Source: a virus (Duplodnaviria; Heunggongvirae; Uroviricota; Caudoviricetes). From it: a DNA stretch of 48,734 nucleotides. The DNA is taken from IMG/VR virus record IMGVR_UViG_2703718802_000011. One strand, given 5' to 3'. The notes below the pieces were generated by a model. The model was not told where the DNA came from, ran no database searches, and saw only the letters and a program-made list of their open reading frames with translations. Shown here piece after piece: positions 11,394 through 47,040 of the stretch. The stretch's first letter is position 1, and each line of letters begins with the position of its first letter. The position numbers and the translations under genes are program-made.

Positions 11394-12623
11394 TTATGCG
11401 GCAATAACTTTGTATTTTTGAGACGAAACATAGTCACTCCACCATTGCATGAGAACCACACGTTCTGTGAGATACTCTGCACGATTGTAGGCTGCAATTA
11501 TTTCATCTTTTTTCGAGTGGGCAAGGGCGGCTTCTAAGACATCAGTTCTAAACTTGCCACACTCCTCAGCCGCCGTTCTAGCGATTGATCGCATACCATG
11601 AGCTACAAGCTCACCTCCGAAGCCCATACGGATTATAGCCGCATTAGCTGTTTGTTCATGCATGTGATTGAGTGGAGCTTTGATACTGGGAAAAACCCAC
11701 TCTCTATGCCCGCTGATGGCTTTCATTGAATCCAAGACTCGCAAAGATTCTTTGCTCAGTGGAACTTTGTGAGGCTTCTTCATTTTCATAAACTCCGCCG
11801 GGATGTTCCACATGCTGGTTTCTATATCAATATCTGACCATCTTGTGCGAACAGCTTCACCAGGGCGAACCCATGTGAGAAGTTGCCACTCAATCAGTAG
11901 CCTTGTTTCTAAACGGATAGAAGCATTGTTTAGAGCAACCAGGAAGCGGGGGAGTTCGGAAGGGGGTAATGCTGGCATATTCTGTTTTTTTGGCTTGCTG
12001 AACCGTTGCCCCAGGTTGTCAGCCGGATTGAATTCTATGAGTTCTTCTGTTGCTGCATAGCGGAAAATTTCATTCAGGCGGGATATGACGCGGCGAAGTG
12101 TTTCAAGGACACCTCGTTTTTCTATGGGGTCTAAATGCTGTTTAAGCATTTTAGGGCGAATCTCCTTAATGGGGGTATCACCCAACGTTGGAAAGATATT
12201 TCTCTCTAGGCTTCGCCAGATGTCGTTAGCATGATCCTGGGAGATGCCTGACGTTTTGACTTTCTCATCAAGCCACTTCTTGGCTACTGCTTGAAATGTA
12301 TGTTCCGTTGCATCCTTAAGGGCATTGGCTTTGTGGGTGTTATGAACTTGTGGGTCTATACCATTTGCAAGCAACGACAAGTACTCATCACGTAAAGCTC
12401 GTGCCTTCGCAAGTGTAAGGTGAGGATAGGTTCCTAAGCTCACCTTAGTTCGCTTTTTGGTCACAGGCACTGCATATCTGAAATACCAATTTTTCTTTCC
12501 TCCCTTCGCTAAGGGGGCGATTCGCAGGAGCAAACCATCGCCGTCAAAAAGGTTAACCTCTTTCTCGGCAGGTTTGGTGCTTTTGATTTCAGTGTCAGTG
12601 AGCTTCTTAGCGATTTTTGCCAT
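11394..12623 (-). CDS. P4-type tyrosine integrase
   Basis: Starts at ATG 12621-12623 ('MAKIAKKLTDTEIK'); P4-like N-terminal arm-binding region and C-terminal catalytic region ending with a Tyr motif ('YNRAEYLTER'); adjacent to the ssrA 3'-end repeat. Confidence 0.8.
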   Translation of the reverse strand: MAKIAKKLTDTEIKSTKPAEKEVNLFDGDGLLLRIAPLAKGGKKNWYFRYAVPVTKKRTKVSLGTYPHLTLAKARALRDEYLSLLANGIDPQVHNTHKANALKDATEHTFQAVAKKWLDEKVKTSGISQDHANDIWRSLERNIFPTLGDTPIKEIRPKMLKQHLDPIEKRGVLETLRRVISRLNEIFRYAATEELIEFNPADNLGQRFSKPKKQNMPALPPSELPRFLVALNNASIRLETRLLIEWQLLTWVRPGEAVRTRWSDIDIETSMWNIPAEFMKMKKPHKVPLSKESLRVLDSMKAISGHREWVFPSIKAPLNHMHEQTANAAIIRMGFGGELVAHGMRSIARTAAEECGKFRTDVLEAALAHSKKDEIIAAYNRAEYLTERVVLMQWWSDYVSSQKYKVIAA

Positions 12624-12720
12624 GTTTGGGACCCTCATGTTTTGGACCCTTTGTGTTGGGTCCCAAAAAGGGTGCCATAACGAGTAGATTCTAGCAATTC
12701 TCGGTAGACTACTATAGACG

Positions 12721-12754
12721 TAAAAAAGCCCGCAAGGCTGGTTCCATGCGGGCT
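12721..12754 (-). terminator. Rho-independent terminator downstream of the displaced ssrA 3'-end copy
   Basis: Stem agcccgca/tgcgggct (12727-12734 / 12747-12754) followed on the minus strand by a T-run (complement of aaaaaa at 12722-12727). Confidence 0.55.
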
Positions 12755-12788
12755 TGATAGACTTCACTGAACTTCAATATATCAAAAA

Positions 12789-12834
12789 TTGGTGGAGCTG
12801 GCGGGAGTTGAACCCGCGTCCGAAATTCCTACAT
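12789..12834 (-). repeat. attR-type direct repeat: 46-bp copy of the ssrA 3' end
   Basis: 'ttggtggagctggcgggagttgaacccgcgtccgaaattcctacat' is identical to 47674-47719 and diverges immediately after. Confidence 0.85.
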
Positions 12835-12889: not shown

Positions 12890-13981
12890 TTAGACTGTGT
12901 TAGGCATTTTTACGTCGTTAAACTTCTTTGTCGCCATTTTGCCGCCACTGGAAGCTTTTATAACGTTAGGCTTTGTATATTTATCCCAGTGAGGAGAATA
13001 AATCGGACAATCAAGTGTAATATATTGATCAAAAAGAAATCTAAAGTCTGTTTCATATATGTAATTAATTATATGTTCATACGGACCTAATTCGGCACCA
13101 TAAATTATCGTTTTTATTTTTCTTGTTAGATATATACTTGCCTCAACGAATTCAAGAAAAGCATTTTCTTCGTGAGCAAAAGTAATAATACTGTATTCAT
13201 TGATCGATATTTTATATCTTGCCCGCATAATACTGTCGATACAGAGCTTTTCAAAAATCATGGCTGTTTTGTTAGAAACAGAATTTATTATTCTAAGGTA
13301 CTCCAGTGGTTTATTTTCTGGGGCCAGTTTCCTTGGTTTTAATGCGTTATCTATATCTCTAAGTAATACTTCTATTTCTTCTAGGAACTTGCTGCTTGGT
13401 TCGAAGTTAGATAGGCTGTGTGGGGCTGAGTTGGGGTATATTTTTTTATAGAGCAAGTAAGGATTTGTAATTTTAACTTGATCGGTAGTTGCTATTTTTT
13501 CATTATCAATTTCCTTGGACGAAATGATGCTTCCATCTTTGTTAGATAGATTTAAAATTGTGAAAGTAGATAAGTGGTTTATTTTTTCGATGAAGTTTTT
13601 TTCATGAGCCAAATATCTGTCAACGGCATTTTTGCTATCAACTGCTTGTATTTGTGCTTCGGTTTGAATTGTGCGATGAATATTGTTTACTATCGATGCG
13701 AGAGGAACGGAACTTGCTAGTAGCAATAAAGGAAACTTGCTGATCTCATAAAATCTAAAATATCCGTGAGCAGTGAGGACAGGTGTTTTTCCACTCCATG
13801 CAAAGTAACCAAAGTAAAAAAATGAAAAAACAGGAAGTAAAATCGATAACCAAAATAATTTTTGGCGGTATAGATTTCTTTTGTCTAACTTGTACCATCT
13901 TCTCCAAATGGAAATGATTAAAATTAATATAATTATTGTTGCATAAATATAAATGTATATATAGTCAGGATATGTTTTCAT
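12890..13981 (-). CDS. Membrane protein (N-terminal transmembrane helices), AT-rich moron translationally coupled to int
   Basis: 363 aa; hydrophobic N-terminus ('IIILILIISIW', 'LFWLSILLPVFSFFYFGYFAW'); ATG overlaps the int stop (ATGA at 13978-13981); strongly AT-rich compared with neighbouring phage genes. Confidence 0.5.
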   Translation of the reverse strand: MKTYPDYIYIYIYATIIILILIISIWRRWYKLDKRNLYRQKLFWLSILLPVFSFFYFGYFAWSGKTPVLTAHGYFRFYEISKFPLLLLASSVPLASIVNNIHRTIQTEAQIQAVDSKNAVDRYLAHEKNFIEKINHLSTFTILNLSNKDGSIISSKEIDNEKIATTDQVKITNPYLLYKKIYPNSAPHSLSNFEPSSKFLEEIEVLLRDIDNALKPRKLAPENKPLEYLRIINSVSNKTAMIFEKLCIDSIMRARYKISINEYSIITFAHEENAFLEFVEASIYLTRKIKTIIYGAELGPYEHIINYIYETDFRFLFDQYITLDCPIYSPHWDKYTKPNVIKASSGGKMATKKFNDVKMPNTV

Positions 13982-15000
13982 ACGTGATTTATACTATTTA
14001 GTGGGTTTTTGGTTACTGCATCTTCAAGATGTTCAGGGGAAAAATGTGCATATACCATGGTCATCTTGATATCTGAGTGACCCAATATATCTCTCAATAC
14101 TAGGATATTTCCGCCGTTCATCATAAAATGGCTGGCGAATGTATGGCGCAACACGTGAGTGCATTGGCCATCAGGTAGTTCGATACCGGCCCGTTTTACT
14201 GCACGCTCAAAGGCTTTTCTGCATGGTGTGAATAACTTCCCTCTGTTTTTGGGTAGCTCGTTGTACAGATCCTGAGATATCGGTACGGTGCGGTTTTTTT
14301 TACCCTTTGTCTTTGTATAGGTAATCCGGTATTTCGATAGTTGATGTCCCTGCAGGTTTTCAGCTTCACTCCAACGTGCACCAGTTGCTAGGCATATTTT
14401 TGCAATCATCAGCAGACTGGGGCTTTGAGAATCAGCACAGGCATCTAGCAGACGTTTAATTTCTTCCGGAGTCAAGAACGCCAGTTCACCTTCAGTAATT
14501 TTAAATGTTGGAAGCCCGGCAAGAGGGTTGGGGGCTGACCAGTGGCCCAGCTTTTTCAGTGTACCAAAAACCGATGATAGGTTGCGTTGTTCAAGATTTA
14601 CCGTGCGGGGCTTAACGGGCGACATTAGCGTGCCATCTTCATTTCGCACTTCACCTTTTAGCCGTGCTTCGCGGTATTTCGTAAAGTCACCGGCAGTCAG
14701 CTCTGAAGCGATGGGATCGCCTAGACCATTACAGATAATTCTAAGTTTCGCCATGAGGCGCTTGGGGTCTGCGAGTGTTTGACCATATAGGGAATACCAC
14801 AGCTCAATTAATTCTGATAGGCGTCTGCGATCTTCCTTTTCCCCCAACCATGGTTTTTTGTTCACTTCTTCCATTGTGAAGCTTTCAAAAGCAATGGCTT
14901 CGCCTTTTGTAGCAAATTGCTTACGTACGCGCTTGCCATTGCGTCCATTGGGATAGCACTCACACAACCATTTACCGTTTGGCTGTTTTCTGACAGTCAT
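13978..15000 (-). CDS. int: P2/186-type tyrosine integrase
   Basis: 340 aa (P2 Int is about 337), 'MTVRKQPNGKW...' N-terminus, C-terminal 'HVLRHTFASHFMMNGGNILVLRDILGHSDIKMTMVYAH' tyrosine-recombinase catalytic region. Confidence 0.85.
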   Translation of the reverse strand: MTVRKQPNGKWLCECYPNGRNGKRVRKQFATKGEAIAFESFTMEEVNKKPWLGEKEDRRRLSELIELWYSLYGQTLADPKRLMAKLRIICNGLGDPIASELTAGDFTKYREARLKGEVRNEDGTLMSPVKPRTVNLEQRNLSSVFGTLKKLGHWSAPNPLAGLPTFKITEGELAFLTPEEIKRLLDACADSQSPSLLMIAKICLATGARWSEAENLQGHQLSKYRITYTKTKGKKNRTVPISQDLYNELPKNRGKLFTPCRKAFERAVKRAGIELPDGQCTHVLRHTFASHFMMNGGNILVLRDILGHSDIKMTMVYAHFSPEHLEDAVTKNPLNSINHV

Positions 15001-18982: not shown

Positions 18983-19809
18983 AAGAAATGCACCACGAAA
19001 TTCATCATTTCCATGGGACGCCTGTCTGGGGAAGTGCTGGCGACGTTCATCGTATTGCGGTGAGCGGAGCTGGCGCTTTCGTCTCCTATGTACGACCAGA
19101 TCAGATTGCGGCGTCCATTCAGCATGCTCAGGTCGTCGGCATTGATAACGGCGCATTTTCTGCATGGGTGCGTGGGCTAAAAATTAACTGGAGTGATTTT
19201 TATAAATGGCTCCTGAACTATTACCACCATCCTAAGGTCGCTTTTTTTGTCATTCCTGATGTTGTGGACGGCGGTGAACGTGACAATGATGCCCTGATAA
19301 ACGAAGTTCCGAAAATGTTCTACGGGAAGGCAACTCCCGTCTGGCATCTGCACGAGTCAATCGATCGGCTTATCGAGCTATGTCGTGAATGGCCTCGTGT
19401 CTGCTTTGGATCGTCTGGTGAATATGCGGCTATCAGAACTGCGCACTGGCATCGTCGTATGCAGGACGCTTTTGAAGCAATTTATTGCCGACACAATTTC
19501 AAAACAGCTGTTCATGGTTTGCGCATGCTTGACGGTCGTGTGTTGGGAAATTACCCACTGGCGACTGCCGACAGTACAAATCTTGCCTGCAATGTCCCCA
19601 AATTTAATAGCAAATATCCTGAGCTTACGCGGGCTATTCAGGAGGCTGAGTATTCGCGCAATCTGACGGAAAAGGAGCTGAAAGCTGTCATTCTGAAAAA
19701 CCGTTGCGCAATTTTAAAAGGTGCAATTGAAGCTGTTCGCCCACCTTCAGTTTCTGATTGGCTGTCGAATGGTTTGCAGCCTTCACAGCTCGAACTGGAG
19801 ATTGCGTAA
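18979..19809 (+). CDS. Hypothetical protein between dam and the replication gene
   Basis: 276-aa ORF (GTG 18979 or ATG 18988) overlapping the dam stop and the A start; no motif I can assign. Confidence 0.45.
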
Positions 19810-22181
19810 TGAACTACAGCTATTCCTGGAATGCTGAGAAAAAAGCAATCAATCCTTACGTAGGGACAGAAGAGCAATCTTCAGTTTCTGCGCTTTCAAA
19901 CCTGATCGCTCTGTACGCTGCCGATAACGAGCAGGAACACCTGCGCCGCGAGGTACTGAGTGATCAGGTCTGGGAGCGTTATTTCTTTAATGAATCCCGT
20001 GATCCTGTCCAGCGCGAAATGGAGCAGGATAAGCTCATTAGTCGGGCAAAGCTGGCGCATGAGCAGCAGCGTTTTAATCCGGACATGGTCATTCTGGCTG
20101 ACGTCAACGCCCAGCCTTCCCATATCAGCAAGCCGCTGATGCAACGTATTGAATATTTCAGCAGCCTGGGCAGGCCAAAGGCTTATTCCCGCTATTTGCG
20201 TGAGACGATTAAGCCATGTCTGGAACGACTGGAGCATGTACGCGACAGCCAGCTATCTGCATCTTTTCGTTTTATGGCAAGCCATGAAGGGCTGGACGGT
20301 CTGCTGATCCTGCCTGAAATGAGTCAGGATCAGGTGAAACGCCTGTCTACCCTTGTCGCTGCGCATATGAGCATGTGTCTTGATGACGCTTGTGGTGATT
20401 TGTATGCCACCGATGACGTTAAGCCAGAAGAAATCCGCAAGACATGGGAAAGGGTGGCAGCAGAAACCCTGCGACTGGATGTCATTCCACCTGCGTTTGA
20501 GCAACTCCGCCGGAAAAGAAACCGCCGTAAACCCGTGCCCTATGAACTCATTCCGGGTTCGCTGGCGCGTATGTTGTGCGCCGACTGGTGGTATCGGAAA
20601 TTATGGAAGATGCGTTGCGAATGGCGGGAAGAGCAGTTGCGCGCTGTCTGCCTGGTCAGCAAAAAAGCATCTCCCTATGTCAGCTATGAAGCCGTGATGC
20701 ATAAACGTGAGCAGCGCCGTAAGTCGCTGGAGTTTTTTCGTTCTCATGAACTGGTGAACGAAGACGGCGACACGCTGGATATGGAAGACGTGGTAAACGC
20801 CAGCAGCAGCAACCCTGCGCATCGCCGCAATGAGATGATGGCCTGTGTTAAAGGTCTGGAGCTTATCGCGGAAATGCGCGGTGACTGCGCCGTTTTCTAC
20901 ACCATCACCTGTCCGTCACGTTTCCATTCCACGCTAAATAACGGCAGACCAAACCCGACCTGGACAAACGCGACAGTAAGACAAAGCAGTGATTATCTGG
21001 TCGGCATGTTTGCTGCATTTCGTAAAGCGATGCACAAAGCTGGATTGCGCTGGTATGGCGTGCGGGTGGCTGAGCCGCATCATGACGGTACAGTTCACTG
21101 GCACCTGTTGTGTTTTATGCGCAAAAAAGATCGCCGAGCCATTACTGCTTTGTTGCGTAAGTTTTCCATTCGTGAAGACCGCGAGGAGCTGGGTAATAAC
21201 ACGGGACCACGCTTTAAGTCTGAGCTGATAAACCCGCGTAAAGGTACGCCAACAAGCTACATCGCGAAATACATCAGTAAGAACATTGACGGACGTGGTC
21301 TGGCTGGTGAGATCAGCAAGGAAACGGGTAAATCCCTGCGTGATAACGCTGAATACGTTAATGCCTGGGCGTCTCTGCATCGTGTTCAGCAATTCCGCTT
21401 CTTTGGTATTCCGGGGCGTCAGGCTTACCGTGAACTGCGATTGCTGGCTGGTCAGGCGGCAAGGCAGCAGGGGGACAAAAAAGCAGGTGCGCCGGTACTG
21501 GATAACCCACGCCTTGATGCCATCCTGGCTGCTGCTGATGCTGGCTGTTTTGCCACCTACATCATGAAGCAGGGCGGCGTGCTGGTTCCCCGCAAATATC
21601 ACCTTATCAGAACAGCTTATGAAATTAACGAAGAGCCGACCGCCTATGGCGATCACGGCATTCGTATTTATGGCATCTGGTCACCCATTGCAGAGGGCAA
21701 GATCTGCACTCATGCAGTGAAGTGGAAAATGGTTCGTAAAGCCGTTGACGTTCAGGAGGCGGCAGCCGACCAGGGCGCTTGCGCCCCTTGGACTCGTGGC
21801 AATAACTGTCCCCTTGCTGAAAATTTGAACCAACAGGAGAAAGATAAATCAGCTGATGGGGACCCCAGAACGGACATTACCCGCATGGATGACAAGGTGT
21901 TGCACGATTACCTGCACAGTATGAACAAAAAGAAGCGCCGGGAATTGGCTGCAAGGTTACGTCTGGTGAAACCGAAACGGCGTAGAGACTACAAACAGCG
22001 AATTACAGACCATCAACGACAGCAGCTTGTCTATGAACTGAAATCCAGAGGATTTGATGGCAGCGAGAAAGAGGTCGATTTACTCCTTCGCGGCGGCAGT
22101 ATTCCGTCAGGAGCAGGCCTGCGTATCTTCTATCGGAACCAGCGTTTGCAGGAAGATGATAAGTGGCGGAACCTGTATTAA
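19809..22181 (+). CDS. A: Rolling-circle replication initiator endonuclease (P2 gpA / 186 A homologue)
   Basis: 791 aa from ATG 19809 (overlapping the upstream TAA); HUH motif 'VHWHLLCF' and tyrosine motif 'YIAKYISK'; conserved position upstream of the cargo hotspot. Confidence 0.85.
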
Positions 22182-22274: not shown

Positions 22275-22294
22275 TACTGTAAATATAAACAGTG
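22275..22294 (+). promoter_or_regulatory. LexA (SOS) box TACTGTAAATATAAACAGTG
   Basis: Perfect CTGT-N8-ACAG with AT-rich spacer (CTGT 22277-22280, ACAG 22289-22292), about 45 bp upstream of ATG 22336. Confidence 0.7.
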
Positions 22295-22335: not shown

Positions 22336-22524
22336 ATGCAGGACTATTTTTTGGAGTCTTTGAAGCTCCAGCGCATTGATTTTTTTCTTAAGCTTGTAGC
22401 GGCTAGTGAGTGCGATGATGAAGAGAAGCGGCTTGCTATCCAGTGGGTTTCGGAGCTGACCGATGAGTTAATGGCGAAAATCCGTACTCATGAGTACAAC
22501 CGTTCAATGGATCTCCCCGGTTAG
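22336..22524 (+). CDS. Small LexA-regulated protein, candidate Tum-like antirepressor
   Basis: 62-aa ORF with AGGAGG RBS (22326-22331) directly downstream of the SOS box; same relative position as the SOS-controlled tum locus of phage 186. Confidence 0.5.
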   Translation: MQDYFLESLKLQRIDFFLKLVAASECDDEEKRLAIQWVSELTDELMAKIRTHEYNRSMDLPG

Positions 22525-23109
22525 GCTTAGGAACGTTGCTGGCGTTAGGACTTGATTCTGACGCTAGCAAGGTTGATCAACGAGCCATGCGAGGCGTTAG
22601 TCATGGGCAAAAAAATAGTAACTTCCAGATTTTGTTTCGTGCCAGGTATTGAGTAGTTTTATCGCCAGAGGGGCTGTTAGCGCTCAAACTACTAATGGAG
22701 CCACACCTTAGATGAGTGATTTGGCTTAAGCTATGATTATATAGTTTTGCTGTACGGCGGCCTTGCTTTTTATTGAAGCGACCAGACTGGAACAACGGCG
22801 AAAGGAGACTAACGATACGCACCAGTTTTTTGAAAAGGTACAGTTATCTAGATTGGTTGCCAATTTTCGTTGAAGCCTGACATACCATTAGGTCATTGCT
22901 TTAGAAAAATTAATACTTGATGTGAGAATTGCTTCAAAACATCTAGAATTAAAGTTTCTTTACTAGTATGCTTCACCACTTGGTCGTTGGGTTGAGTGCA
23001 AAAGCTAAGGCTGATGCCCAGTACGCTATCCGCATTATTGCCAGAGAACCGATTCGAAACCGGAATCTGGCAGAGCATGGGCGCAAGTGCTGGCTTCCCA
23101 ACGGCCTCG

Positions 23110-24078
23110 TTATTTATAATATGCTGACTTCAAAACCACTCGTCTTTCAACCTGCTGTGATAGCATTACCGCGTTAGTCCAATCTTTTGGATACCTTATT
23201 TCTTCTATAACACGAATATAAGCACATACTTTATTTTTTCCCTCTCCTTTGGCATAAGTAACCTCTAGATTATTAAATTTCAATAAGTGCTCTCTTCTTT
23301 GGTAAGTAAAACAGCCGTAATCACGGACATCAGAAGAAGTAATAGCATGAGTTGAAGGAAACCGAACTAGTAAATTTCTCAAGTAGGGAATAATGTCCAA
23401 ACTCGTTGCTTTGTTTTCTTCTCTGCGACTCTTTCTGAACATATGTCTCCAACCCAGCCGTGTAAGCTCGATTTTCCCAAGCACCGGAGATGTGATTTCT
23501 TTCTGTTCAGAATAACGTTTTTTAACAAACGCTCGCCGATTATTAAGTAGTGAGTTTCTTCTTCTTACATGGATTCCTTTTGCTCCAGTTTCACCTGCAC
23601 GTACCATGGACATACAGCGAGCCAGGTCAAACCGTGTAGCCGGAGTGATTAAGTGATATTCTCCATAAGTTTGGTTTTTAAGGGTAGTGTTTGGATGTAT
23701 ATAGGCCCAAAATGCTTTACGATTAGTTCTGTCAACCCAAACGACACATATATGGTGAGTTGTCCTTTTGGCTGCTTTTTTTGCGGCCGAATTTAATACA
23801 AAACCTTTCTCTAATAAATGACCATAAGTTGCCCCTGATTTAACTTGCGACAATATAAGCATTCTTTCTTTTGATGCCCATGGATGTTCGAAGGATAATA
23901 TTAAATCTATTTTTGAATTGTCGTCTTCCCTGGAACCCCAGTGCCCCTCTCCTCTACAAGCAAGAATGAATTGACTCATTGCATAAGATTCGGCGTCACT
24001 GCCGTTAACTGAGTTAAACTGTCTTGTTTCTAGCACAGTTGGTATTGGTCGTGATGCAAGTAAACTGAAAGATCCCAC
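23110..24078 (-). CDS. Hypothetical cargo protein in the A-Q hotspot
   Basis: 322-aa ORF on the opposite strand to flanking phage genes, AT-rich, with no P2/186 counterpart at this position. Confidence 0.5.
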   Translation of the reverse strand: MGSFSLLASRPIPTVLETRQFNSVNGSDAESYAMSQFILACRGEGHWGSREDDNSKIDLILSFEHPWASKERMLILSQVKSGATYGHLLEKGFVLNSAAKKAAKRTTHHICVVWVDRTNRKAFWAYIHPNTTLKNQTYGEYHLITPATRFDLARCMSMVRAGETGAKGIHVRRRNSLLNNRRAFVKKRYSEQKEITSPVLGKIELTRLGWRHMFRKSRREENKATSLDIIPYLRNLLVRFPSTHAITSSDVRDYGCFTYQRREHLLKFNNLEVTYAKGEGKNKVCAYIRVIEEIRYPKDWTNAVMLSQQVERRVVLKSAYYK

Positions 24079-24515
24079 TTATAGTTCTCTCCAAAAAATT
24101 GCATAATCTTGAACGCTAAAAAATAGTATACAAACTAAAGTATTTTTTCATTTAATTCAATGTATTGGCTAAAATTAAGACATTTATAGCTATATGTACT
24201 AGATAACATAGCGTTGTTTTCCTTTTGAAATCTCTTCTTGTGGTAACACAACAGTATTTACTCAAGTAGTTTGTCACTGCATGGGGAGATTTCGCTATGT
24301 CCGCGGCATCATACAGATGCGATAGATTTTCAGCATGACCTTGGGTAGCAAATCTGTAGGTATCATCCATTGCACCTCAAAGTAACTCTGGTGCATACCT
24401 ATGCTGCATGAAAATGAATGATCGCTAGTGGATCGTTTATGTCGAAGCCTGCCAGTTCTGACGGGCTTTTGCTTATGTTATGCAACTGCATGAAAACCAC
24501 TACACAAAGCGGGCA

Positions 24516-24534
24516 GGCGTGGCGGGGATACGAG
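24516..24534. other. Candidate cos cohesive-end sequence (GGCGTGGCGGGGATACGAG)
   Basis: GC-rich 19-mer in an AT-rich intergenic region; the first 13 nt match the 186/P2 cohesive-end sequence as I recall it (GGCGTGGCGGGGAAAGCAT / GGCGAGGCGGGGAAAGCAC). Confidence 0.35.
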
Positions 24535-24686
24535 CGCGCGCTAAGTCATATAAGAGTTATATATTGATTTGATTGCTGGACATGCATACAGTATCGCTCT
24601 ATCATCTAATAAATCTTAGAGTATTTGACAATGTTTGGATAAAATGGAACCTAACTTATTCATAATCCGCTAAACAGGGATGTCAG

Positions 24687-25601
24687 ATGCCATACCAATT
24701 GGTAGAGCTTAGCCCCGTAGCTAACGATCTTGAACAGTTAGGAACCAAAGAGAAGTTTTGGTTCTATTTCTCCGATGACACTGTAAATTTGCAGTTGTTT
24801 AAGTACTCTAGGCCAGGTACTGGCGAGCATTGGTCTGAAAAGTGTGCTGCTGAGTTATGTCATTTGCTTAACATTCCACATGCTAGCTATGATTTGGCGC
24901 GATACAATGGTCGATTCGGTGTGGTGACTCAGAATATCATTCCATCTGGTTTCCGGATGGTAATGGGAAATGAAGTGCTTCACAGTTCGACATTCGATTA
25001 TCCTGGGCCTTTACAAGCCGGGGAAAAGCCGGTAAGGGTCAGAGAACACACTGTCACAAGGGTATTGGGTTGTTTGGATAGGGAATCTATCAAGCCTCCT
25101 CCGAGTGTATATGATCTAACCGGGCTAAATGCAGCAGATGTATTTTGTGGATATTTGATGCTCGATGCACTTGTGAGTAATCAAGATCGCCATCATGAAA
25201 ATTGGGCGATCATGCTTAACAATGAAACTGGTGAGCAGTTTTTGTGTCCAACATACGATCATGCCGCTAGTTTAGGAAGGGAGATGTTAGATGATGAGCG
25301 TAACGAACGGCTTAATACTAAAGATAAAAATCGACAAATCCCATGTTTTGTAAGAAAAGCTCGCTCTGAGCTATTCAAAGCAAAAACTGATAAAAAGCCC
25401 TTGCTGACCGTTGAAGCATTTCAACATGCAGTTGAAGGGAGAGTTGCCGCTCGCGACCATTGGTTAGGTAAGTTGAGCGTTTTAACAGAAGATTCCATTA
25501 CAGATGTGTTTAACCAAGTGCCTTCATCGTGTATATCCGACAGTGCACGTAGATTTGCAACGTTAATGGTAATGGAAAATCGCAGAAGGTTACTAGAATG
25601 A
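24687..25601 (+). CDS. HipA-like (HipT-type) serine/threonine kinase domain protein
   Basis: 304 aa; 'LGTKEKFWF' (HipA P-loop-like) near the N-terminus, catalytic 'SNQDRHHENWA' (D-x-H-x2-N, about nt 25185) and 'CPTYDHAASLG' (HipA D332-region-like). Confidence 0.65.
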   Translation: MPYQLVELSPVANDLEQLGTKEKFWFYFSDDTVNLQLFKYSRPGTGEHWSEKCAAELCHLLNIPHASYDLARYNGRFGVVTQNIIPSGFRMVMGNEVLHSSTFDYPGPLQAGEKPVRVREHTVTRVLGCLDRESIKPPPSVYDLTGLNAADVFCGYLMLDALVSNQDRHHENWAIMLNNETGEQFLCPTYDHAASLGREMLDDERNERLNTKDKNRQIPCFVRKARSELFKAKTDKKPLLTVEAFQHAVEGRVAARDHWLGKLSVLTEDSITDVFNQVPSSCISDSARRFATLMVMENRRRLLE

Positions 25602-26338
25602 CTAATACAAACTCCGTTTACGTCGCATGGCAGGCACCAGATACCAGAGACTGGCATGTTGTTGGTAACTTGCAAGAGCGCAAATCGGGGTATGTTTTCA
25701 GGTATACCAAAGGTGCTCTTAAATCTACTAAATTTACAAAGTTTAGCGGCATGAGTGATGTTCGTGAAACTTATGTTTCGGAAGAATTGTTTCCTCTTTT
25801 TAAAAATCGCCTTTTATCACCGAGACGTCCAGAGTATCCGAGTTTCATTAAATGGCTTGGATTTGAAGAAGATAAGGTAAATCCTATCGATATTCTTGCT
25901 CGCTCGGGAGGCTTACGAAGCACTGATCAGCTGCAGATTTTCAAAAAAATTGATGTTGATTCTGATGGTAACTTTGAGCATTTTTTCTTCTTACATGGAC
26001 TTGGTTACTTAAATAGCTTAGCTAATGCTCGTGTATCTGAATTGAAACCGGGGCAAATTTTGCGTCTTTGCTTGGATCTTCAAAATGAATACGATGGGGA
26101 TGCTGTTGTCGTTCGTGCAGATAAACCAGCTGAAATCGTTGGTTACTGCCCTAGGTATTTAAGTAATGATATCAAGAAGATGTTATTGGATGATCCAAAA
26201 TCAATCACTTTAACGGTCGAAAAGATTAGCGATGATGCTCCTCATAACTATCGGTTATTATGTAAATTATCAGGAGTACTAAGCCAAGCCTGTCAATCGA
26301 CGCTGATTCCTCAGGATGAGTTTGAACCTATTGAGTAA
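25598..26338 (+). CDS. HipA N-terminal (HipS-like) domain fused to a HIRAN-like domain
   Basis: ATG overlaps the kinase stop (ATGA). N-terminus 'VVGNLQERKSGYVFRY...EELFPLFKNRLLSPRR...NPIDILARSGGLRS' resembles the HipA N-subdomain; C-terminus 'ILRLCLDLQNEYDGDAVVVRADKPAEIVGYCPRYLS' resembles the HIRAN consensus. Confidence 0.5.
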   Translation: MTNTNSVYVAWQAPDTRDWHVVGNLQERKSGYVFRYTKGALKSTKFTKFSGMSDVRETYVSEELFPLFKNRLLSPRRPEYPSFIKWLGFEEDKVNPIDILARSGGLRSTDQLQIFKKIDVDSDGNFEHFFFLHGLGYLNSLANARVSELKPGQILRLCLDLQNEYDGDAVVVRADKPAEIVGYCPRYLSNDIKKMLLDDPKSITLTVEKISDDAPHNYRLLCKLSGVLSQACQSTLIPQDEFEPIE

Positions 26339-26344
26339 ATGAAG

Positions 26345-26368
26345 AAAAGCCACCAAACGGTGGCTTTT
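26345..26368. terminator. Bidirectional rho-independent terminator between the kinase module and Q
   Basis: Perfect 10-bp stem aaaagccacc/ggtggctttt with 4-nt loop, flanked by A-run and T-run. Confidence 0.7.
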
Positions 26369-26372
26369 CTTA

Positions 26373-27413
26373 TTATGGGACTATATCTAGCGAGTAGGTA
26401 TTAAACTGTATCGCCTCCTTGCCAAGCCAATCATTCATCTCCTGTAATCGCTTTTGTAGTGGCATTAGCTCATTTCGGACGAATACACGGCTTGCCTTTT
26501 CCACATCCCCAAACCCCCCAACATTATTCGGCATAATCCCCATCATTTGTGGCGGCACGCGGTGCGCTGCCATCATGTCATCCCGACTCACGTTCTTGAT
26601 GTTAAGAAATTCATCCTTCGCCGCGACTTCTGACAATGGGATGATCTGAAGCCCGTCTTTTTTGCCGTTAGGTGAGTACATAAACAGGTTGCGGAAGTTG
26701 CCTGGACCTTTGGCGCTTTTCATCGCGTTGCGGAGGTTGTTCACATCCTCCTGATTCTGCGCGGCATCGGTCATGTACATGATGAAGCCTGCATGGCTGC
26801 CATTGATGTAATACTTACGGCGGAACAGCGTGGCGGACTCGTTGAGCAGAGCGGATGGAATAGCAGAAAGATAGCCAGGCAGGCCGTAGATCTCCTGGTT
26901 GATGTCCGGTTCCATCAGATGAAAGATGCTGCCTTTCGTGAACTGATACGGCTGGGTTGTCATACCGTATTGCACAAACCAGTAGGTATCCAGGTCTAAC
27001 CCGCGTCGGGTGTATTTTGCCAGAGCAGGCTCAAGGGCGATAATTTCACCGAAGCGGTTCGTGCGTTTCTCCAGGTAGGCGTTACCAAATACCAGATAGT
27101 CCTGCACAAAACGTGAAAAAGCCTGCTGGCTGAGCAACGGGTGAGGGATATAGGTGCTGGTCAGAATGTTGCACTTTACTGCAATCGGTGAGCTGTGGTG
27201 TACGGCGGCGCGGAAGGTTCGCGCCAGGCCGTCGAAACTCACTGGTGGCTCATACCAACGGTCCATCTGTACGCATTCCACATAGTCCAGCAGTTCGCGG
27301 CGGTCCAGAACAGGAACGGGATCGCCGAAGCTGAATGCTTCGGCTGTAGTTTGACTTTTAAGCTGGATCTGTTTCGTCGCCGCAGCGCGGTTCTTCTTAC
27401 TCTTTCCCATCAA
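26373..27413 (-). CDS. Q: Portal protein (P2 gpQ homologue)
   Basis: 346 aa (P2 Q is about 344); downstream of the terminase large subunit in the leftward operon. Confidence 0.8.
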   Translation of the reverse strand: MMGKSKKNRAAATKQIQLKSQTTAEAFSFGDPVPVLDRRELLDYVECVQMDRWYEPPVSFDGLARTFRAAVHHSSPIAVKCNILTSTYIPHPLLSQQAFSRFVQDYLVFGNAYLEKRTNRFGEIIALEPALAKYTRRGLDLDTYWFVQYGMTTQPYQFTKGSIFHLMEPDINQEIYGLPGYLSAIPSALLNESATLFRRKYYINGSHAGFIMYMTDAAQNQEDVNNLRNAMKSAKGPGNFRNLFMYSPNGKKDGLQIIPLSEVAAKDEFLNIKNVSRDDMMAAHRVPPQMMGIMPNNVGGFGDVEKASRVFVRNELMPLQKRLQEMNDWLGKEAIQFNTYSLDIVP

Positions 27414-29176
27414 AAAATCTCCACAATATTGCTGGTATTGGCGGATTCGCCCTGCAGCGGTTCGTTAAACAGTGCGTGCATCGTTGCCCAGGCCAGATCG
27501 GCGTGGCTGGCTTCTTCGCTGCGGCTGGCTTCATAGGTCGGGCGGTTGCCACTGGCGGTGGTGGCGCGACGGATTGCCATAAAGGACTGCGCTATGTCGG
27601 TGTGTCCGGCGTCAAACTCCAGACGGCGGTGGCTGATAATGTCGTAGGCCTTGAGTACCAGGGCGTTTTTAACGTTGGGGCTGTAGACAAACTCCCGGAC
27701 GGCAGGAAAAAACGCTTTCACGTTCTCGTAAACCCCGTGACCAACGCCGGTTGAGTCGATACCGATATAGGTCACGTTGTACTGTTCGGTCAGTTTTTTG
27801 ATGGCGTCAGCCTGGGCGCGGAAGTCCATTCCGCGCCACTGGTGACGCTCAAGAATGCGGAACTTACCGCCCGGCACGGCTGGCGGAGCCACCACCACGC
27901 ATCCGGCGCTGTCGCCGTTCTGCGTACCTTTCGCCGGGTCATATCCGATCCACACTTCGCGCCAGCCAAACGGGCGCAGGGCCAGTGCATGAAAGTCGGT
28001 CCAGACTTCCCAACTGTCCACCATGCACGCCTGCAGCTCGCTGAGCGGGAACACGGACGCGAGATCGTCCACGAACTCACACATCAGCAGGTTCTGGTAT
28101 TCGTCCGGGCTGTACTCCATGCGCAACTGGTCGAGGTCGAATAGGTTACAGCCGCCGCGCACCGCATCTTCCACAGTGACTATCTGGCGGTACTGCCCGT
28201 CTGCGCACAGCAGGCCGGGGGCCAGATTGCTGTGGGACAGGTCGATGTCCACCTTATCGGCTTTGTTGCGCCCTCGGTTGAACAGCGCACCGGACCAGAA
28301 CGGATAAGCACTGTGTGTCAGGCTGGATGGCGTGGAAAAATAGGTTTGTCGCCATTTTTTGTGAATAGCCATACCGGAAGCCACTTTGCGCAGCTCCTGG
28401 AATTTCGGTATCCAGAAATATTCATCCAGATACAGGTTGCCGTGGTAACTCTGGGCCGTGCGGGCATTGGTGCCGAGGAAGTACAGCGTGGCCCCGTTAG
28501 GAAGCACCATCGGATCGCCTTTCAGCTCCACCTCCACTTCTTTGGCGAAGTCGATGATGTACTGCTTAAAGACGTGGGCCTGAGCCTTGCTGGCGGAAAG
28601 GAAAATCTGGTTACGCCCGGTCAGCAGGGCGTCAATCAGGGCTTCACGGGCAAAATAGAAGGTCGCGCCGATCTGGCGTGACTTCAGCAGGTTGCGGATG
28701 CGGTTGGTTTTTCCGGCTTCCCACCAGTGGCGCTGGTAGTTGAACATGGAGGAATGGAAGATTTCTTTCAGCTTCTCAATCTGTTCATCGGTGAAAACGT
28801 TCTTTTCCGGCTGACGGCGCGGGCCTTTGTTGCGGTTGGCGACGTTAGGGTTTAAGTCGGCTTCGTTGCCGCCATTGTTAAACTTGCCGATCCGCGCATG
28901 GCGCTCCGACTGGCGCGCCAGCAGGTCAATCTCTTTGAAATCTTTCCCTTCTTTGTGCTCCTTCATAATGAGCTGGCAGTAGCGTGCGGCGGTGGTGAGC
29001 TGCATCTGATCCAGCGGCCCATAGTCACCCCACTTGTCGCGTTTTTTCCAGCTGTGAACGGTTGCAACTTTCTCGCCCAGCATTTCAGCAATGCGGGCTA
29101 CGCGGTATCCCTGAAAGTACAGCAGCATGGCCTGCCGACGGGGATCGAGATCTGCGGGTGTCAGTGTGGTGTTCAT
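27410..29176 (-). CDS. P: Terminase large subunit (P2 gpP homologue)
   Basis: 588 aa (P2 P is about 590); divergent from O; ATPase/nuclease-sized protein. Confidence 0.8.
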   Translation of the reverse strand: MNTTLTPADLDPRRQAMLLYFQGYRVARIAEMLGEKVATVHSWKKRDKWGDYGPLDQMQLTTAARYCQLIMKEHKEGKDFKEIDLLARQSERHARIGKFNNGGNEADLNPNVANRNKGPRRQPEKNVFTDEQIEKLKEIFHSSMFNYQRHWWEAGKTNRIRNLLKSRQIGATFYFAREALIDALLTGRNQIFLSASKAQAHVFKQYIIDFAKEVEVELKGDPMVLPNGATLYFLGTNARTAQSYHGNLYLDEYFWIPKFQELRKVASGMAIHKKWRQTYFSTPSSLTHSAYPFWSGALFNRGRNKADKVDIDLSHSNLAPGLLCADGQYRQIVTVEDAVRGGCNLFDLDQLRMEYSPDEYQNLLMCEFVDDLASVFPLSELQACMVDSWEVWTDFHALALRPFGWREVWIGYDPAKGTQNGDSAGCVVVAPPAVPGGKFRILERHQWRGMDFRAQADAIKKLTEQYNVTYIGIDSTGVGHGVYENVKAFFPAVREFVYSPNVKNALVLKAYDIISHRRLEFDAGHTDIAQSFMAIRRATTASGNRPTYEASRSEEASHADLAWATMHALFNEPLQGESANTSNIVEIF

Positions 29177-31230: not shown

Positions 31231-31881
31231 ATGAGCCTGAGTCCCGCACGGCAGCATCGCCTGCGCGTTCAGGCTGAACAGGCCGCCCGCGAGGGCGGCA
31301 GTGTTCGCCACGCGTCGGGCTATGACCTGATGCTGCTGCAACTGGCGGAAGACCGCCGCCGTCTCAAGGGCGTTCAGTCCACGGTCAAAAAAGCGGAAAT
31401 CAAGGTGGAGCTGCTGCCGAAGTACGCCGCCTGGGCAGAGGGTGTCCTGGCTGCCGGAGGCGCTCAACAGGATGACGTGCTGATGTACGTGATGCTGTGG
31501 CGCATTGATGCCGGAGATTATGCCGGGGCGCTGCAGATCGGGCGTCATGCCCTGCGTCATGGCTGGGTGATGCCGCTGGGTAATCGCAATGTGCAGACCG
31601 TGCTGGCAGAGGAAATGGCAGACGCTGCGCAGAGCGCAATGCTTGCCGCCACCGGCTTTGATGCCGATCTGTTGCTGCAGACGCTGGAGCTGACAGACGG
31701 TCTGGATATGCCGGACCAGTCACGGGCGCGTCTGCATAAAGCGATTGGCGCTGTCCTGAGTGAAAGCAATCCGGCTTCCGCCCTTAATCATCTCAACCAT
31801 GCGTTACAGCTCGATCCCCGCTGTGGCGTGAAAAAAGACAAACAGCAGTTGGAGCGCAGACTGCGCAATGACAGCCGCTGA
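31231..31881 (+). CDS. M: Terminase small subunit (P2 gpM homologue)
   Basis: 216 aa following N. Confidence 0.7.
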   Translation: MSLSPARQHRLRVQAEQAAREGGSVRHASGYDLMLLQLAEDRRRLKGVQSTVKKAEIKVELLPKYAAWAEGVLAAGGAQQDDVLMYVMLWRIDAGDYAGALQIGRHALRHGWVMPLGNRNVQTVLAEEMADAAQSAMLAATGFDADLLLQTLELTDGLDMPDQSRARLHKAIGAVLSESNPASALNHLNHALQLDPRCGVKKDKQQLERRLRNDSR

Positions 31882-37622: not shown

Positions 37623-39349
37623 GCACAAAATTTTATACCCTGCTGACGGATATTGGCGCGGCGAAACTTGCCAGCGCCGCCGCGCTCGGTGTGCCTTTAA
37701 AAATTACCCATATGGCGGTCGGCGATGGCGGCGGAACATTGCCAACGCCGGACGCAAAGCAGACAGCATTGGTAAATGAGAAACGCCGGGCTGCGCTGAA
37801 TATGCTCTATATCGACCCGCAGAACAGCAGCCAGATTATTGCCGAACAGGTGATCCCAGAAAACGAGGGCGGTTGGTGGATACGTGAAGTGGGCCTGTTT
37901 GATGAGTCCGGGGCATTGATTGCCGTGGGCAACTGCCCGGAAAGCTATAAGCCACAACTGGCTGAAGGCAGCGGGCGCACCCAGACCGTGCGCATGGTGC
38001 TGATTACCAGCAGTACGGACAATATCACCCTGAAAATCGACCCTGCTGTCGTGCTGGCAACCCGCCATTATGTAGATCAACAAATAGAAATTCATGAGCA
38101 ATCGCGCCGCCATCCTTCTGCGTCTTTGACAGAAAAGGGATTTGTACGTCTGTATAGCGGTGTGGAAAGCAATGATGAAACAGTCGCTGCAACGCCAAAA
38201 GCAGTGAAAATAGCGATGGATAATGCCAGCGCCAGACTGGCAAAAGACCGCAATGGTTCTGATATTCCCAATCCGGCACTGTTTGTTCAGAATCTGGGAT
38301 TGAAAACGACTGTTGATAAAGCTGCATCAGCGATTCAGCCAGGAGATTATGGAATTGGCCTGGCTTATCTGAAAACCATGGGAACCAAATCGCAATTTTT
38401 TGCTTATGGTACAGCTGTCGGCTATCCAGAAGTGCCAACACATGGTGCTGGTTTCCAGGCCTGTTACAACGACAATCGACGTGCACAAATTTATGTCGCT
38501 AATGATGGCAAGATGTACTGTCGATTCAGCATGTTATCGAAAATTGCCGATGATGAAACACCGTGGAATCAGGTGTTCACCAGTGCACATTATCCAGAAG
38601 CATCAGTGAGTGTTAAAGGAATGGTGCAACTGGGGAACGATGTAAACAGCGTGTCAGAAAATGTTGCGGCGACATTGAAAGCGGTAAAAATTGCGATGGA
38701 CAACGCCAGTGCGAGACTGGCAAAGGACCGCAATGGTGCTGATATTCCTGACCCGACTTTGTTTATTCAGAATCTGGGACTTAAACCGACGGTTGATAAG
38801 GCTGAAAGTGCTCTGCAACAGGGAGCATACGGAATCGGTAGCAATAATAACTACGAAATGGGTGAGGTTTCACAGTTTCTTGCATATTCAGGTAATGCAG
38901 ATGAAGTGCCATCGAATGGTGCAGGTTTTCAGGCTGCGTATAACAAGAACAGACGCGCGCAGATTTTCATCACCGGAGCAGGGGAAATGTATCACCGTTT
39001 CAGCGGCTCTGATACGGTTAAAGACAATACAACACCATGGCGTCGGGGTGTTTGTGAAGATGAATTTTCATTTGGCAGCAATTATCACCGAATAACTGGC
39101 GGTGTGCTGAAGCAGTTTTTTAACAGTTATTTTTCCGGGGCAACTGGTGTGGTGAATAAAGAGTATCAGGTGAATTTTCCGACACCATTTGCCCGTCAGT
39201 GCTGGTACGTGATCCCCGTTTTCCGTTCGCCACACGGTGGGAGTGTTGAGGGTGTCGCCATTACAGCTATTACTGCAACTGGCTTTACTCTGAGCATCAC
39301 CGGAGATAACGGTGGATGGAATATTGGGTTTATTGCGGAGGGGGTCTGA
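37619..39349 (+). CDS. H: Tail fiber protein H, with an internal duplicated module
   Basis: 576 aa; conserved N-terminus; contains two diverged copies of an approximately 160-aa module. Confidence 0.8.
   Translation: MSTKFYTLLTDIGAAKLASAAALGVPLKITHMAVGDGGGTLPTPDAKQTALVNEKRRAALNMLYIDPQNSSQIIAEQVIPENEGGWWIREVGLFDESGALIAVGNCPESYKPQLAEGSGRTQTVRMVLITSSTDNITLKIDPAVVLATRHYVDQQIEIHEQSRRHPSASLTEKGFVRLYSGVESNDETVAATPKAVKIAMDNASARLAKDRNGSDIPNPALFVQNLGLKTTVDKAASAIQPGDYGIGLAYLKTMGTKSQFFAYGTAVGYPEVPTHGAGFQACYNDNRRAQIYVANDGKMYCRFSMLSKIADDETPWNQVFTSAHYPEASVSVKGMVQLGNDVNSVSENVAATLKAVKIAMDNASARLAKDRNGADIPDPTLFIQNLGLKPTVDKAESALQQGAYGIGSNNNYEMGEVSQFLAYSGNADEVPSNGAGFQAAYNKNRRAQIFITGAGEMYHRFSGSDTVKDNTTPWRRGVCEDEFSFGSNYHRITGGVLKQFFNSYFSGATGVVNKEYQVNFPTPFARQCWYVIPVFRSPHGGSVEGVAITAITATGFTLSITGDNGGWNIGFIAEGV
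38135..39060 (+). repeat. Internal tandem duplication (2 x about 480 nt, diverged) within tail fiber gene H
   Basis: Protein copies '..VAATPKAVKIAMDNASARLAKDRNGSDIPNPALFVQNLGLKTTVDKA..GAGFQACYNDNRRAQIYV' and '..VAATLKAVKIAMDNASARLAKDRNGADIPDPTLFIQNLGLKPTVDKA..GAGFQAAYNKNRRAQIFI' at a 160-aa offset. Confidence 0.75.
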
Positions 39350-45656: not shown

Positions 45657-46753
45657 ATTTCAGCTCTGAACTGCTTAACAAAGGCGACAAAACTCCCGCA
45701 TTCAGCATCAGTATTGAGGGGAAGGATATCACCACTGTGCTGGACAAACGCCTGATGGGGCTTACGCTGACGGATAACCGGGGCTTTGAAGCGGACCAGC
45801 TTGATCTGGAGCTGGACGACGTCGACGGAAAAATCGTGCTGCCGCGCCGTGGTGCGGTCATTACGCTGGCGCTGGGTTGGAAGGGGCAGCCGCTTTTCCC
45901 GAAAGGGGCATTCACGGTGGACGAGATTGAACACACTGGCGCACCGGACCGCCTGACTATCCGGGCGCGAAGTGCTGATTTTCGGGAAACGCTGAATACC
46001 CGCCGTGAAAAATCGTGGCATAACACCACCATCGGGGAAGTGGTGAAGGAAATAGCCGCGCGGCACAAGCTGAAGATGGCACTGGGTAAAGACCTGTCGG
46101 ATAAGCCCGTGGAGCATATAGACCAGACTAATGAGAGTGACGGCAGTTTTTTGATGCGGCTGGCGCGCCAGTACGGTGCCATTGCATCGGTGAAAAATGG
46201 CAATCTGTTATTCATCCGGCAGGGACAGGGCAAAAGCGCCAGCGGTAAACCACTGCCGGTGATTACTATCACACGTAAGGACGGCGACAGTCACCGCTTT
46301 ACCCTGGCAGATCGCGGAGCTTACACGGGGGTAATTGCCAGCTGGTTGCATACCCGCGAACCCGCGAAGAAAGAAAGCACTACGGTGAAGCGTAAGCGCA
46401 GGACTAAGAAGCAGAAGAAAGAGCCGGAAGCGAAGCAGGGCGATTACCTGGTGGGGACGGATGAAAACGTGCTGGTACTTAATCGCACTTATGCCAACCG
46501 GAGCAACGCTGAACGGGCAGCGAAAATGCAGTGGGAACGCCTGCAACGTGGCGTTGCGTCATTCTCGCTACAACTGGCGGAAGGGCGGGCAGATCTCTAC
46601 ACGGAAATGCCTGTGAAGGTCAGTGGTTTTAAACAGCCAATAGATGATGCGGAATGGACCATTACGACTCTGACACATACCGTCAGCCCGGATAACGGTT
46701 TTACAACCAGTATTGAACTCGAAGTGAAGATTTATGATCTTGAAATGGAATAA
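45653..46753 (+). CDS. D: Tail protein D (late control gene D)
   Basis: 366 aa; GTG start overlapping the U stop; conserved position before ogr. Confidence 0.8.
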   Translation: MNFSSELLNKGDKTPAFSISIEGKDITTVLDKRLMGLTLTDNRGFEADQLDLELDDVDGKIVLPRRGAVITLALGWKGQPLFPKGAFTVDEIEHTGAPDRLTIRARSADFRETLNTRREKSWHNTTIGEVVKEIAARHKLKMALGKDLSDKPVEHIDQTNESDGSFLMRLARQYGAIASVKNGNLLFIRQGQGKSASGKPLPVITITRKDGDSHRFTLADRGAYTGVIASWLHTREPAKKESTTVKRKRRTKKQKKEPEAKQGDYLVGTDENVLVLNRTYANRSNAERAAKMQWERLQRGVASFSLQLAEGRADLYTEMPVKVSGFKQPIDDAEWTITTLTHTVSPDNGFTTSIELEVKIYDLEME

Positions 46754-46821
46754 AGTGTTCTCAATATTGATACTTTGTGTATCATTACAATGATTCTGAT
46801 AGCAAAGGTAGGGATCTGGAT

Positions 46822-47040
46822 ATGATGAATTGTCCAAAGTGTGGTCATGCGGCACACACAAGGAGCAGTTTTCAAGTAACTGAAAGCACCAAAGAGCGTT
46901 ACTGCCAGTGCCAAAATATTAACTGCGGGAGCACTTTTGTTACCCATGAAACAGTGGTCCGGTTTATTGTGACACCCGCACTGATTGCTACTGCTCCTCC
47001 ACATCCATTGCCAGGTGGTCAGGGGCATATGAATTTTTGA
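46822..47040 (+). CDS. ogr: Ogr/Delta-type zinc-finger late transcription activator
   Basis: 72 aa from ATG 46822; 'CPKCGHAAHTRSS...KERYCQCQNINCGSTF' is the Ogr-type Cys4 zinc finger; followed by 'PHPLPGGQ'. Confidence 0.85.
   Translation: MMNCPKCGHAAHTRSSFQVTESTKERYCQCQNINCGSTFVTHETVVRFIVTPALIATAPPHPLPGGQGHMNF

Follow-up and report, generated by a model that had tools for sequence, protein, structure and literature searches.

The 19-nt sequence GGCGTGGCGGGGATACGAG at positions 24516-24534 of the window, by which is meant the whole 48,734-nt stretch of DNA that was analysed, is in all likelihood (a probability of about 0.93, judged from sequence) the cos site of a complete, ~34.9-kb P2-like prophage of the Fels-2/SEN8 type that is integrated at ssrA in E. 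coli. This assignment is founded on homology to known cos sites, on the register and position of the element, on the limits of conservation around it, on the way in which cos variants track the portal, on the completeness of the prophage, on the variability of the adjoining cargo, and on the replaceable nature of the DNA beyond the conserved block. What we infer in addition are the cutting positions, a role for the conserved TGCA motifs, and the function of the cargo. The features of the region are collected in Table 1.

Table 1. Features of the cos region and of the prophage that carries it, in window coordinates.
Feature	Position	Strand	Evidence or remark
Replication gene A	19758-22181	+	Pfam Phage_GPA, E 9e-127; 85% to SEN8 gpA
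LexA-box-like site	22275-22294	+	Consensus with 3 mismatches; once in window, 0/100 shuffles
62-aa ORF	22336-22524	+	87% to SEN8_47; matches phrog_698
Left-hand cargo bay	22513-24390	-	40.1% G+C, 1.9 kb
322-aa DUF4365/LPD3-like gene	23110-24078	-	179 full-length homologues
Full conserved cos block, ~151 nt	24391-24541		Footprint and homology breakpoints
P2/P4 55-bp core	24487-24541		29 nt left + 19-mer + 7 nt right
cosN-like 19-nt cohesive-end sequence	24516-24534	+	In register with 186, PSP3, P2 and P4; identical to SEN8 putative cos
Right-hand cargo bay	24542-26372	+	40.5% G+C vs 51.8% in rest of prophage
Promoter-like site	24577-24605		TGGACA-17-TATCAT
HipI-like kinase, 304 aa	24687-25601	+	PADLOC PDC-M03A, E 2e-122, full length
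HipN-like HIRAN protein, 246 aa	25598-26338	+	PDC-M03B, E 3e-93; Pfam HIRAN 51.3 bits (cut-off 24.7), residues 127-228
Bidirectional terminator	~26342-26371	both	-21 kcal/mol, z -7.3 on each strand; between HIRAN gene and converging portal
Portal, Q-like	26373-27413	-	Pfam Phage_portal
Large terminase subunit, P-like	27410-29176	-	Pfam Terminase_6N, Terminase_6C, Terminase_5; 99.3% to SEN8 gpP over 588 aa
Small/endonuclease terminase subunit, gpM-like	31231-31878	+	94.9% to SEN8 gpM, all 216 aa
ogr	46777-47040		

The 19-mer and its relation to known cos sites

P2-type terminases cut cos to leave 19-nt 5' overhangs, and the window 19-mer has the G+C-rich form of the P2-family cohesive end, GGCGnGGCGGGGAnnnnnn. 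It lies on the plus strand and is the sole match to GGCGTGGCGGGGATACGAG in the window, even when three mismatches are allowed; none of 100 dinucleotide-preserving shuffles contained a match. Together with the next seven nucleotides (CGCGCGC), it forms a 26-nt stretch of 81% G+C, compared with 47% and 29% in the flanking 100 nt on either side, and the initial annotation was therefore right to describe a GC-rich element set within an AT-rich intergenic region.

That annotation had also noted a 13-nt match to the cohesive ends of P2 and 186. For comparison, the two termini of each GenBank record (186, P2, and PSP3), in which the cohesive ends are annotated at position 1, were joined in silico into circular references. 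The reference cos sequences do align here, and they align in register: the window element agrees base for base with the annotated 186 and PSP3 cos, GGCGTGGCGGGGAAAGCAT, over its first 13 nt, while the match to P2, GGCGAGGCGGGGAAAGCAC, extends to 12 of the 13, such that the 13-nt match holds in full for 186 and PSP3 and falls one base short for P2. Over the whole 19 nt, the window agrees with 186 and PSP3 at 15 positions and with P2 at 14. The register continues into the flanks, which share TGCATkAAAACC...AAGyGGGCr on the left and yGCGCGC on the right, as can be seen from the window (...ATGCAACTGCATGAAAACCACTACACAAAGCGGGCA/GGCGTGGCGGGGATACGAG/CGCGCGC...) and 186 (...ATGCAACTGCATTAAAACCGACCCATAAAGTGGGCA/GGCGTGGCGGGGAAAGCAT/TGCGCGC...) sequences. 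The annotated cos of P4 is likewise in register with the window 19-mer.

Relative to the 186/PSP3 and P2/P4 sites, the overhang length and register predicted for the window are the same; GGCGnGGCGGGGA and the GCGsGCr heptamers on both strands are present, as are TGCATkAAAACC at -29 and the TGCA motifs at -124 and -111, and the site likewise adjoins the minus-strand Q-P operon. The differences lie in positions 14-19, in an identity of 41-44/55 in the core, and in the distance to the portal gene, which in P2, 186, and PSP3 begins 187-198 nt from the left end, whereas in the window Q is 1838 nt away. At positions 14-19, four of the six bases differ from the experimentally sequenced P2 and 186 ends (ATACGAG versus AAAGCAy), and the context of the bottom-strand nick is consequently not identical to a verified one.

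A 55-bp core has been described as common to P2 and its satellite P4 (Ziermann & Calendar 1990, as cited in PMC5694545 and PMC3931495). Within this core, the window is identical to P2 at 41 of 55 positions, to P4 at 44, to 186 and PSP3 at 43-44, and to SEN8 at 54; for scale, P2 and 186 agree with one another at 48 of 55. Both TGCATkAAAACC and yGCGCGC are retained in the window. Furthermore, the window, SEN8, 186, P2, and P4 all have TGCA[T/A] motifs at approximately -124, -111, and -29 relative to the cut, and along the nicked strand the heptamer immediately 5' of each predicted nick is GCGsGCr, on both strands and in all six sequences compared. The presence of these heptamers on both strands confers a loose two-fold symmetry around the overhang. 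We infer that the TGCA motifs and the GCGsGCr heptamers are determinants of terminase recognition and nicking.

The conserved sequence extends well beyond the core on one side only. In an ungapped footprint of 36 distinct loci of the window's cos type, among the matches listed, positions 24391-24541 are near-invariant and the surrounding sequence falls to background identity. Similarly, the homology of the window to two other E. coli prophages breaks off at 22512 and resumes at 24392/24393. The footprint and the breakpoints thus delimit a cos block of ~151 nt that is strongly asymmetric, consisting of ~125 nt on the gpA side (the right end of the genome), the 19-mer, and the 7-nt CGCGCGC on the Q side. 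The minimal cos is ~125 bp. In the window, CTGCATGAAAA occurs twice, ~84 nt apart as read by eye, and these copies, like the TGCA[T/A] motifs of 24391-24515, are candidate terminase-binding repeats. Two further elements were considered and set aside. A conserved hairpin beside the cut site was dropped as a defined element, with folding z-scores of -0.66 for the 19-mer region and -2.1 for a hairpin inside the block. An outward promoter within the block that would serve the leftward cargo, proposed by analogy with the P2 old-tin transcript, which starts ~150 nt from the cut, is speculation, as the match at 24445-24418 reaches only 9/12 and the -35 hexamer is not conserved.

In a full-text literature search, the exact 19-mer turned up in a single paper, the genome announcement of SEN8, which gives it as the cos site. 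In the record of this Salmonella phage (KT630647.2; Felsduovirus), positions 1-19 are annotated as a 'putative cos site' identical to the window 19-mer; the record ends at the base equivalent to window position 24515, and is thus linearised between the equivalents of 24515 and 24516. The phage was isolated and its genome sequenced from virions. As in the window, the SEN8 site, which differs at a single core position, sits between the accessory genes of the DinI side and the portal, and accessory ORFs are found on both sides of it. The cargo itself differs: SEN8 carries two unrelated ORFs between cos and Q, and DinI with a 246-aa ORF on the other side, whereas the window has hipIN-like genes on the former side and the 322-aa gene, without DinI, on the latter. 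The nearest known cos is that of SEN8 and, by extension, those of Fels-2, SopEPhi, RE-2010, and the Klebsiella ST-type prophages. Kindred endings in ...ACGAG are annotated in Smp131 (GGCGTGGCGGGGAGACGAG) and in SEN4/5. No physically mapped ends of ...ACGAG variants were found in the literature, the cos sites of SEN8, Smp131, and SEN4/5 all having been annotated by analogy to P2.

A pattern scan of IMG/VR, in which the left 5 nt, positions 1-13, and the right GCGCGC were set while positions 14-19 could vary, yielded at least 120 P2-type loci, so that the conservation of the set parts in this sample is a product of its construction. Among the matches listed, the window 19-mer is the commonest variant, accounting for 37 of 121 loci with the window included. 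The portal proteins of the ...ATACGAG and ...ATACGAT loci are, in every case listed, 75-100% identical to that of the window, compared with at most 72% for all other cos variants. The cos variant therefore tracks the phage lineage. Five of the loci listed carry the variant GGCGTGGCGGGGAGAGCAT, and all five are P4-like satellites (psu, sid, alpha); in the same sample this variant occurs in no helper-type phage, and the window variant in no satellite. An exact match to the 35-mer spanning the cos/cargo junction was not found among GTDB representative genomes; the junction is present in complete E. coli genomes, and so is simply absent from the GTDB species representatives.

The prophage, its terminase and competing readings of the site

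The element in which the 19-mer lies is a complete prophage, similar in size to SEN8 (35.2 kb) and bounded by att repeats at 12789 and 47674. The tmRNA gene occupies 47675-48037, its 3' end is repeated at ~12789, and the chromosome flanking the prophage is that of E. coli. A tblastn comparison with the SEN8 proteins yielded matches in SEN8 order, mostly full length, from int (13987-15000) to D, which ends at 46750. These run through int, cI, apl/cox, cII, dam, and gpA, then through Q, P, O, N, M, L, X, the lysis genes, R, and S, and finally through V, W, J, I, H, FI, FII, E, T, U, and D. Only the N-terminal parts of the tail-fibre protein H and the tape-measure protein T match SEN8, and the SEN8 exonuclease and DinI had no tblastn match in the window. 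Q, P, O, N, M, L, and int are all intact and full length.

The position of the 19-mer within this element is that expected of cos. The order gpA (+), cos, Q (-), P (-) is the same as in P2, 186, and PSP3, and places the site between the accessory region on the gpA side and the divergently oriented Q-P operon, with Q and P (26373-29176) as the first genes in the left arm of the mature genome. The same element also encodes the cognate P2-type terminase, gpP and gpM, of which the gpM-like protein is presumably the partner of gpP in the recognition and cutting of cos.

Three other interpretations of the site can be weighed against this background. The idea that a GC-rich island in an AT-rich intergenic region is a chance motif, or that it serves some unrelated regulatory or structural purpose, for instance as a terminator or a REP-like hairpin, deserves hardly any credence. 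While the island is indeed short, the shuffled sequences contained no equivalent of it, the folding of 24490-24545 is no better than that of shuffled sequence (z -0.66), and chance is excluded by the flanks, which are homologous to genuine cos regions over ~150 nt. A role for the site as primarily that of a satellite, or as a target for P4-like piracy, is an equally far-fetched reading. P4-like satellites do carry the same 55-bp core, and several of the sampled loci are themselves satellites; yet the window cos is flanked by the gpA and Q genes of a complete helper-type phage, its surroundings lack psu, sid, delta, and alpha genes, and its ATACGAG variant occurs in 0 of the 9 IMG/VR satellites among the matches listed.

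The alternative of most substance, albeit an improbable one, is that the sequence descends from cos but no longer works, either through the changes at positions 14-19 or through replacement of the DNA from +8 onward, leaving the prophage effectively cryptic. The four altered bases among the last six are compatible with such decay, as is the wholesale replacement of the native cos-Q spacer and its terminator. Moreover, in E. coli SW071614 the same cos and cargo segment sits in a prophage that has clearly degraded and whose portal is truncated. However, the variant is the commonest one among the matches listed and is identical in SEN8, which was sequenced from virions. Among the listed relatives, 20 of 24 have more than 400 nt of other DNA starting from the same +8 boundary, so that replacement there is evidently tolerated, and in the window prophage Q, P, O, N, M, L, and int are intact and the tail genes match in SEN8 order. 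Decay is therefore unlikely, as the variant is the norm of its lineage and recurs in an isolated phage whose terminase is nearly identical. A cos that belongs to the prophage itself remains the reading adopted here.

As for the SW071614 remnant (NZ_CM129856.1), its cos and cargo segment is 100% identical to that of the window and resides at a different chromosomal site near ybjL, and its truncated portal is joined to a gpD-like fragment and ogr. Within the window prophage, the tail-fibre region contains a 239-nt direct repeat (38120-38358 and 38600-38838; 70% identity, 480 nt apart), which lies downstream of the SEN8-like portion of gpH. Beyond the prophage, the first 12,830 nt of the window contain a P4-type tyrosine integrase gene (11394-12767, minus strand; Arm-DNA-bind_3, Phage_int_M, and Phage_integrase) that abuts the partial ssrA copy at ~12789, and the DNA upstream of it is an E. 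coli island in which NACHT, ankyrin, RelA/SpoT, and ParB genes are annotated. Integrase and island together resemble another integrative element, inserted at ssrA in tandem with the prophage.

Accessory genes on either side of cos

The initial annotation had placed a HipA-like pair between cos and Q and, at the opposite end of the genome, a 322-aa gene and a 'tum-like' gene. Both placements stand: reading rightward from cos, the kinase gene is followed by the HIRAN gene and then by the converging portal gene, and on the other side the order is gpA, a 62-aa gene with a LexA box, the 322-aa gene, and cos.

On the right, the 1838-nt cos-Q interval contrasts with one of 157-179 nt, terminator included, in four relatives of the same cos type in which the site is empty, and the window departs from these relatives directly after CGCGCGC. 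The two genes that fill the interval have the architecture described for hipIN-type modules (Gerdes et al. 2021, PMC8262856). As in hipIN, PDC-M03, and the 'HIRAN-kinase' entry of the supplement of Rousset et al., a small putative HipA-family kinase of ~300 aa precedes a protein of ~246 aa with a C-terminal HIRAN domain, and the stop and start codons of the two genes overlap. The Pfam HipA_C match of the kinase, at 20.7 bits, lies below the gathering threshold of 30.5. By sequence comparison, the pair is a candidate hipIN-like, PDC-M03 defence or toxin-antitoxin module; in the literature found, no toxicity or anti-phage tests of the family are reported.

On the left, the 62-aa ORF sits directly after gpA, in the position held by tum and tumA in 186 and PSP3 and by gene 47 in SEN8, and the LexA-box-like site lies 42 nt upstream of its ATG. 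Its product gives no BLASTP alignment with 186 Tum or PSP3 TumA at E <= 100, and the designation 'Tum-like' is therefore one of position and LexA box, not of protein similarity. In SEN8, 813R9, E. coli MS1665, and E. coli 89-3156, this ORF is followed by a DinI/TumB-like gene that is missing from the window. In the MS1665 and 89-3156 prophages, homology to the window ends at 22512, and some other relatives share sequence up to ~22600. In the window, dinI seems to have given way to the left-hand cargo.

Its numerous full-length homologues, from Gamma- and Betaproteobacteria and from cyanobacteria, show that the 322-aa protein is genuine. Some of these homologues exceed the Pfam thresholds for DUF4365 and LPD3. 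The family is widespread and uncharacterised, with an N-terminal DUF4365-like and a central LPD3-like region; the corresponding matches in the window copy are sub-threshold. PGAP calls a shorter, 289-aa form, while the homologues support the 322-aa start, and the gene has no PADLOC match. A 72-aa ORF beside it (24152-24370, minus strand) was rejected as a gene, having no Pfam, PHROG, or PADLOC match and no PGAP call.

Cargo on both sides of cos, which the initial annotation had proposed for this phage, is borne out by the layout and is not unusual. Among the matches listed, 18 loci of the window's cos type, a set that counts two ...ATACGAT loci as well as ...ATACGAG, allow both distances to be measured; cargo is present on both sides in six of these, on the right only in nine, on the left only in two, and on neither side in one. 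Across this lineage, the cos-Q distance ranges from 157 to 3380 nt and the gpA-cos distance from 483 to 3643 nt, again among the matches listed. A cos-Q distance above 400 nt occurs in 20 of 24 listed IMG/VR loci of the window's type (...ATACGAG), compared with 4 of 30 of the P2 type. For the listed P2-type loci with both distances measurable, 20 have cargo on the left only and three on both sides, gpA-cos exceeding 900 nt in 23/23.

The two segments also differ in their distribution, the right-hand one being found in 21 of 5426 complete E. coli genomes and the left-hand one in 4 of 5426. HipI and HipN proteins with identical RefSeq accessions are joined to three different left-hand contents: a 176-aa hypothetical protein, an ATPase and SIR2 pair, and the 322-aa gene. 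A prophage in E. coli strain SCU-115 shows the window's gene order around cos, at about 98% identity over 11.5 kb, and its cos and cargo segment is essentially that of the window.

Packaging and the gpA-gpQ hotspot

By analogy with P2 biology, the phage's own gpP and gpM would, after induction and replication, recognise the ~151-nt cos block, for the most part within the ~125-nt arm on the gpA side and including the TGCA motifs at -124, -111, and -29. Nicks placed 19 nt apart, in the top strand before 24516 and in the bottom strand after 24534, would generate the 5' overhangs. In the packaged linear genome, GGCGTGGCGGGGATACGAG would accordingly come first, ahead of the kinase module and Q, and the 322-aa gene and then ...AAAGCGGGCA would come last. 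Since the required sequence would extend for 7 nt on the right and ~125 nt on the left, DNA immediately beyond the block would be freely replaceable. The predicted result is a pair of accessory-gene bays that diverge from cos, with the kinase/HIRAN pair between cos and Q, and the DUF4365-like gene on the other side, flanked by cos and the SOS-controlled small gene. Once cos is located, the packaged genome has defined ends and a defined map orientation, and both accessory modules would travel at the extreme ends of the virion DNA; the position of cos is also of use for annotation and for defining the boundaries of defence hotspots.

Much of this arrangement has precedents. The cos-proximal gpA-gpQ interval of P2-like phages was identified as a hotspot for anti-phage systems by Rousset et al. 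(2022; PMC9122126), and a 2026 NAR study (PMC13586616) confirmed the hotspot across 8165 P2-like prophages. An insertion site between cosL and Q was noted earlier still (Dodd & Egan 1996 and Nakayama 1999, as cited in PMC5694545). As in these hotspots, variable, low-GC accessory genes occupy the interval between gpA and gpQ in the window, next to cos; gpA forms the conserved left boundary, and gene content between gpA and gpQ varies among otherwise syntenic relatives. Table S5A of Rousset et al. even lists WP_021534477, WP_001146828, and WP_000185757 together at the gpA-gpQ locus, and these are the RefSeq 62-aa, kinase, and HIRAN proteins of E. coli genomes with a near-identical cos and cargo segment. 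In view of the SEN8 annotation and the published hotspots, the cos assignment and the cargo layout were therefore already known, and the finding, while correct, is an ordinary one, a textbook element whose arrangement has been documented before.

The sole mildly new point concerns the way in which cos parts the hotspot into two independently exchanging bays, possibly with a side preference that depends on lineage. In the passages of the Rousset 2022 and NAR 2026 texts that treat the interval, gpA-gpQ is handled as one hotspot, whereas the data here split it at cos. We lean towards the view that the hotspot comprises two cargo bays separated by the ~151-nt cos island, which would act as a fixed recombination anchor, that the bays exchange independently, and that lineages differ in the bay they fill. 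It is possible that the Fels-2/SEN8-type lineage favours the cos-Q side and the P2-type lineage the gpA side, in what is a small and pattern-selected sample. Should the two-bay reading be true, the asymmetric cos requirement (~125 nt versus 7 nt) would set where cargo can go, and the cos-Q bay would lie at the extreme left end of the packaged genome.

At the far end of the prophage, a 363-aa ORF (12890-13981, minus strand), which has no Pfam or PADLOC match, is located between the att repeat and the phage integrase gene, its start overlapping the int stop. This ORF may mark a third place for cargo, at the int-att site to which the 2026 NAR study (PMC13586616) refers.
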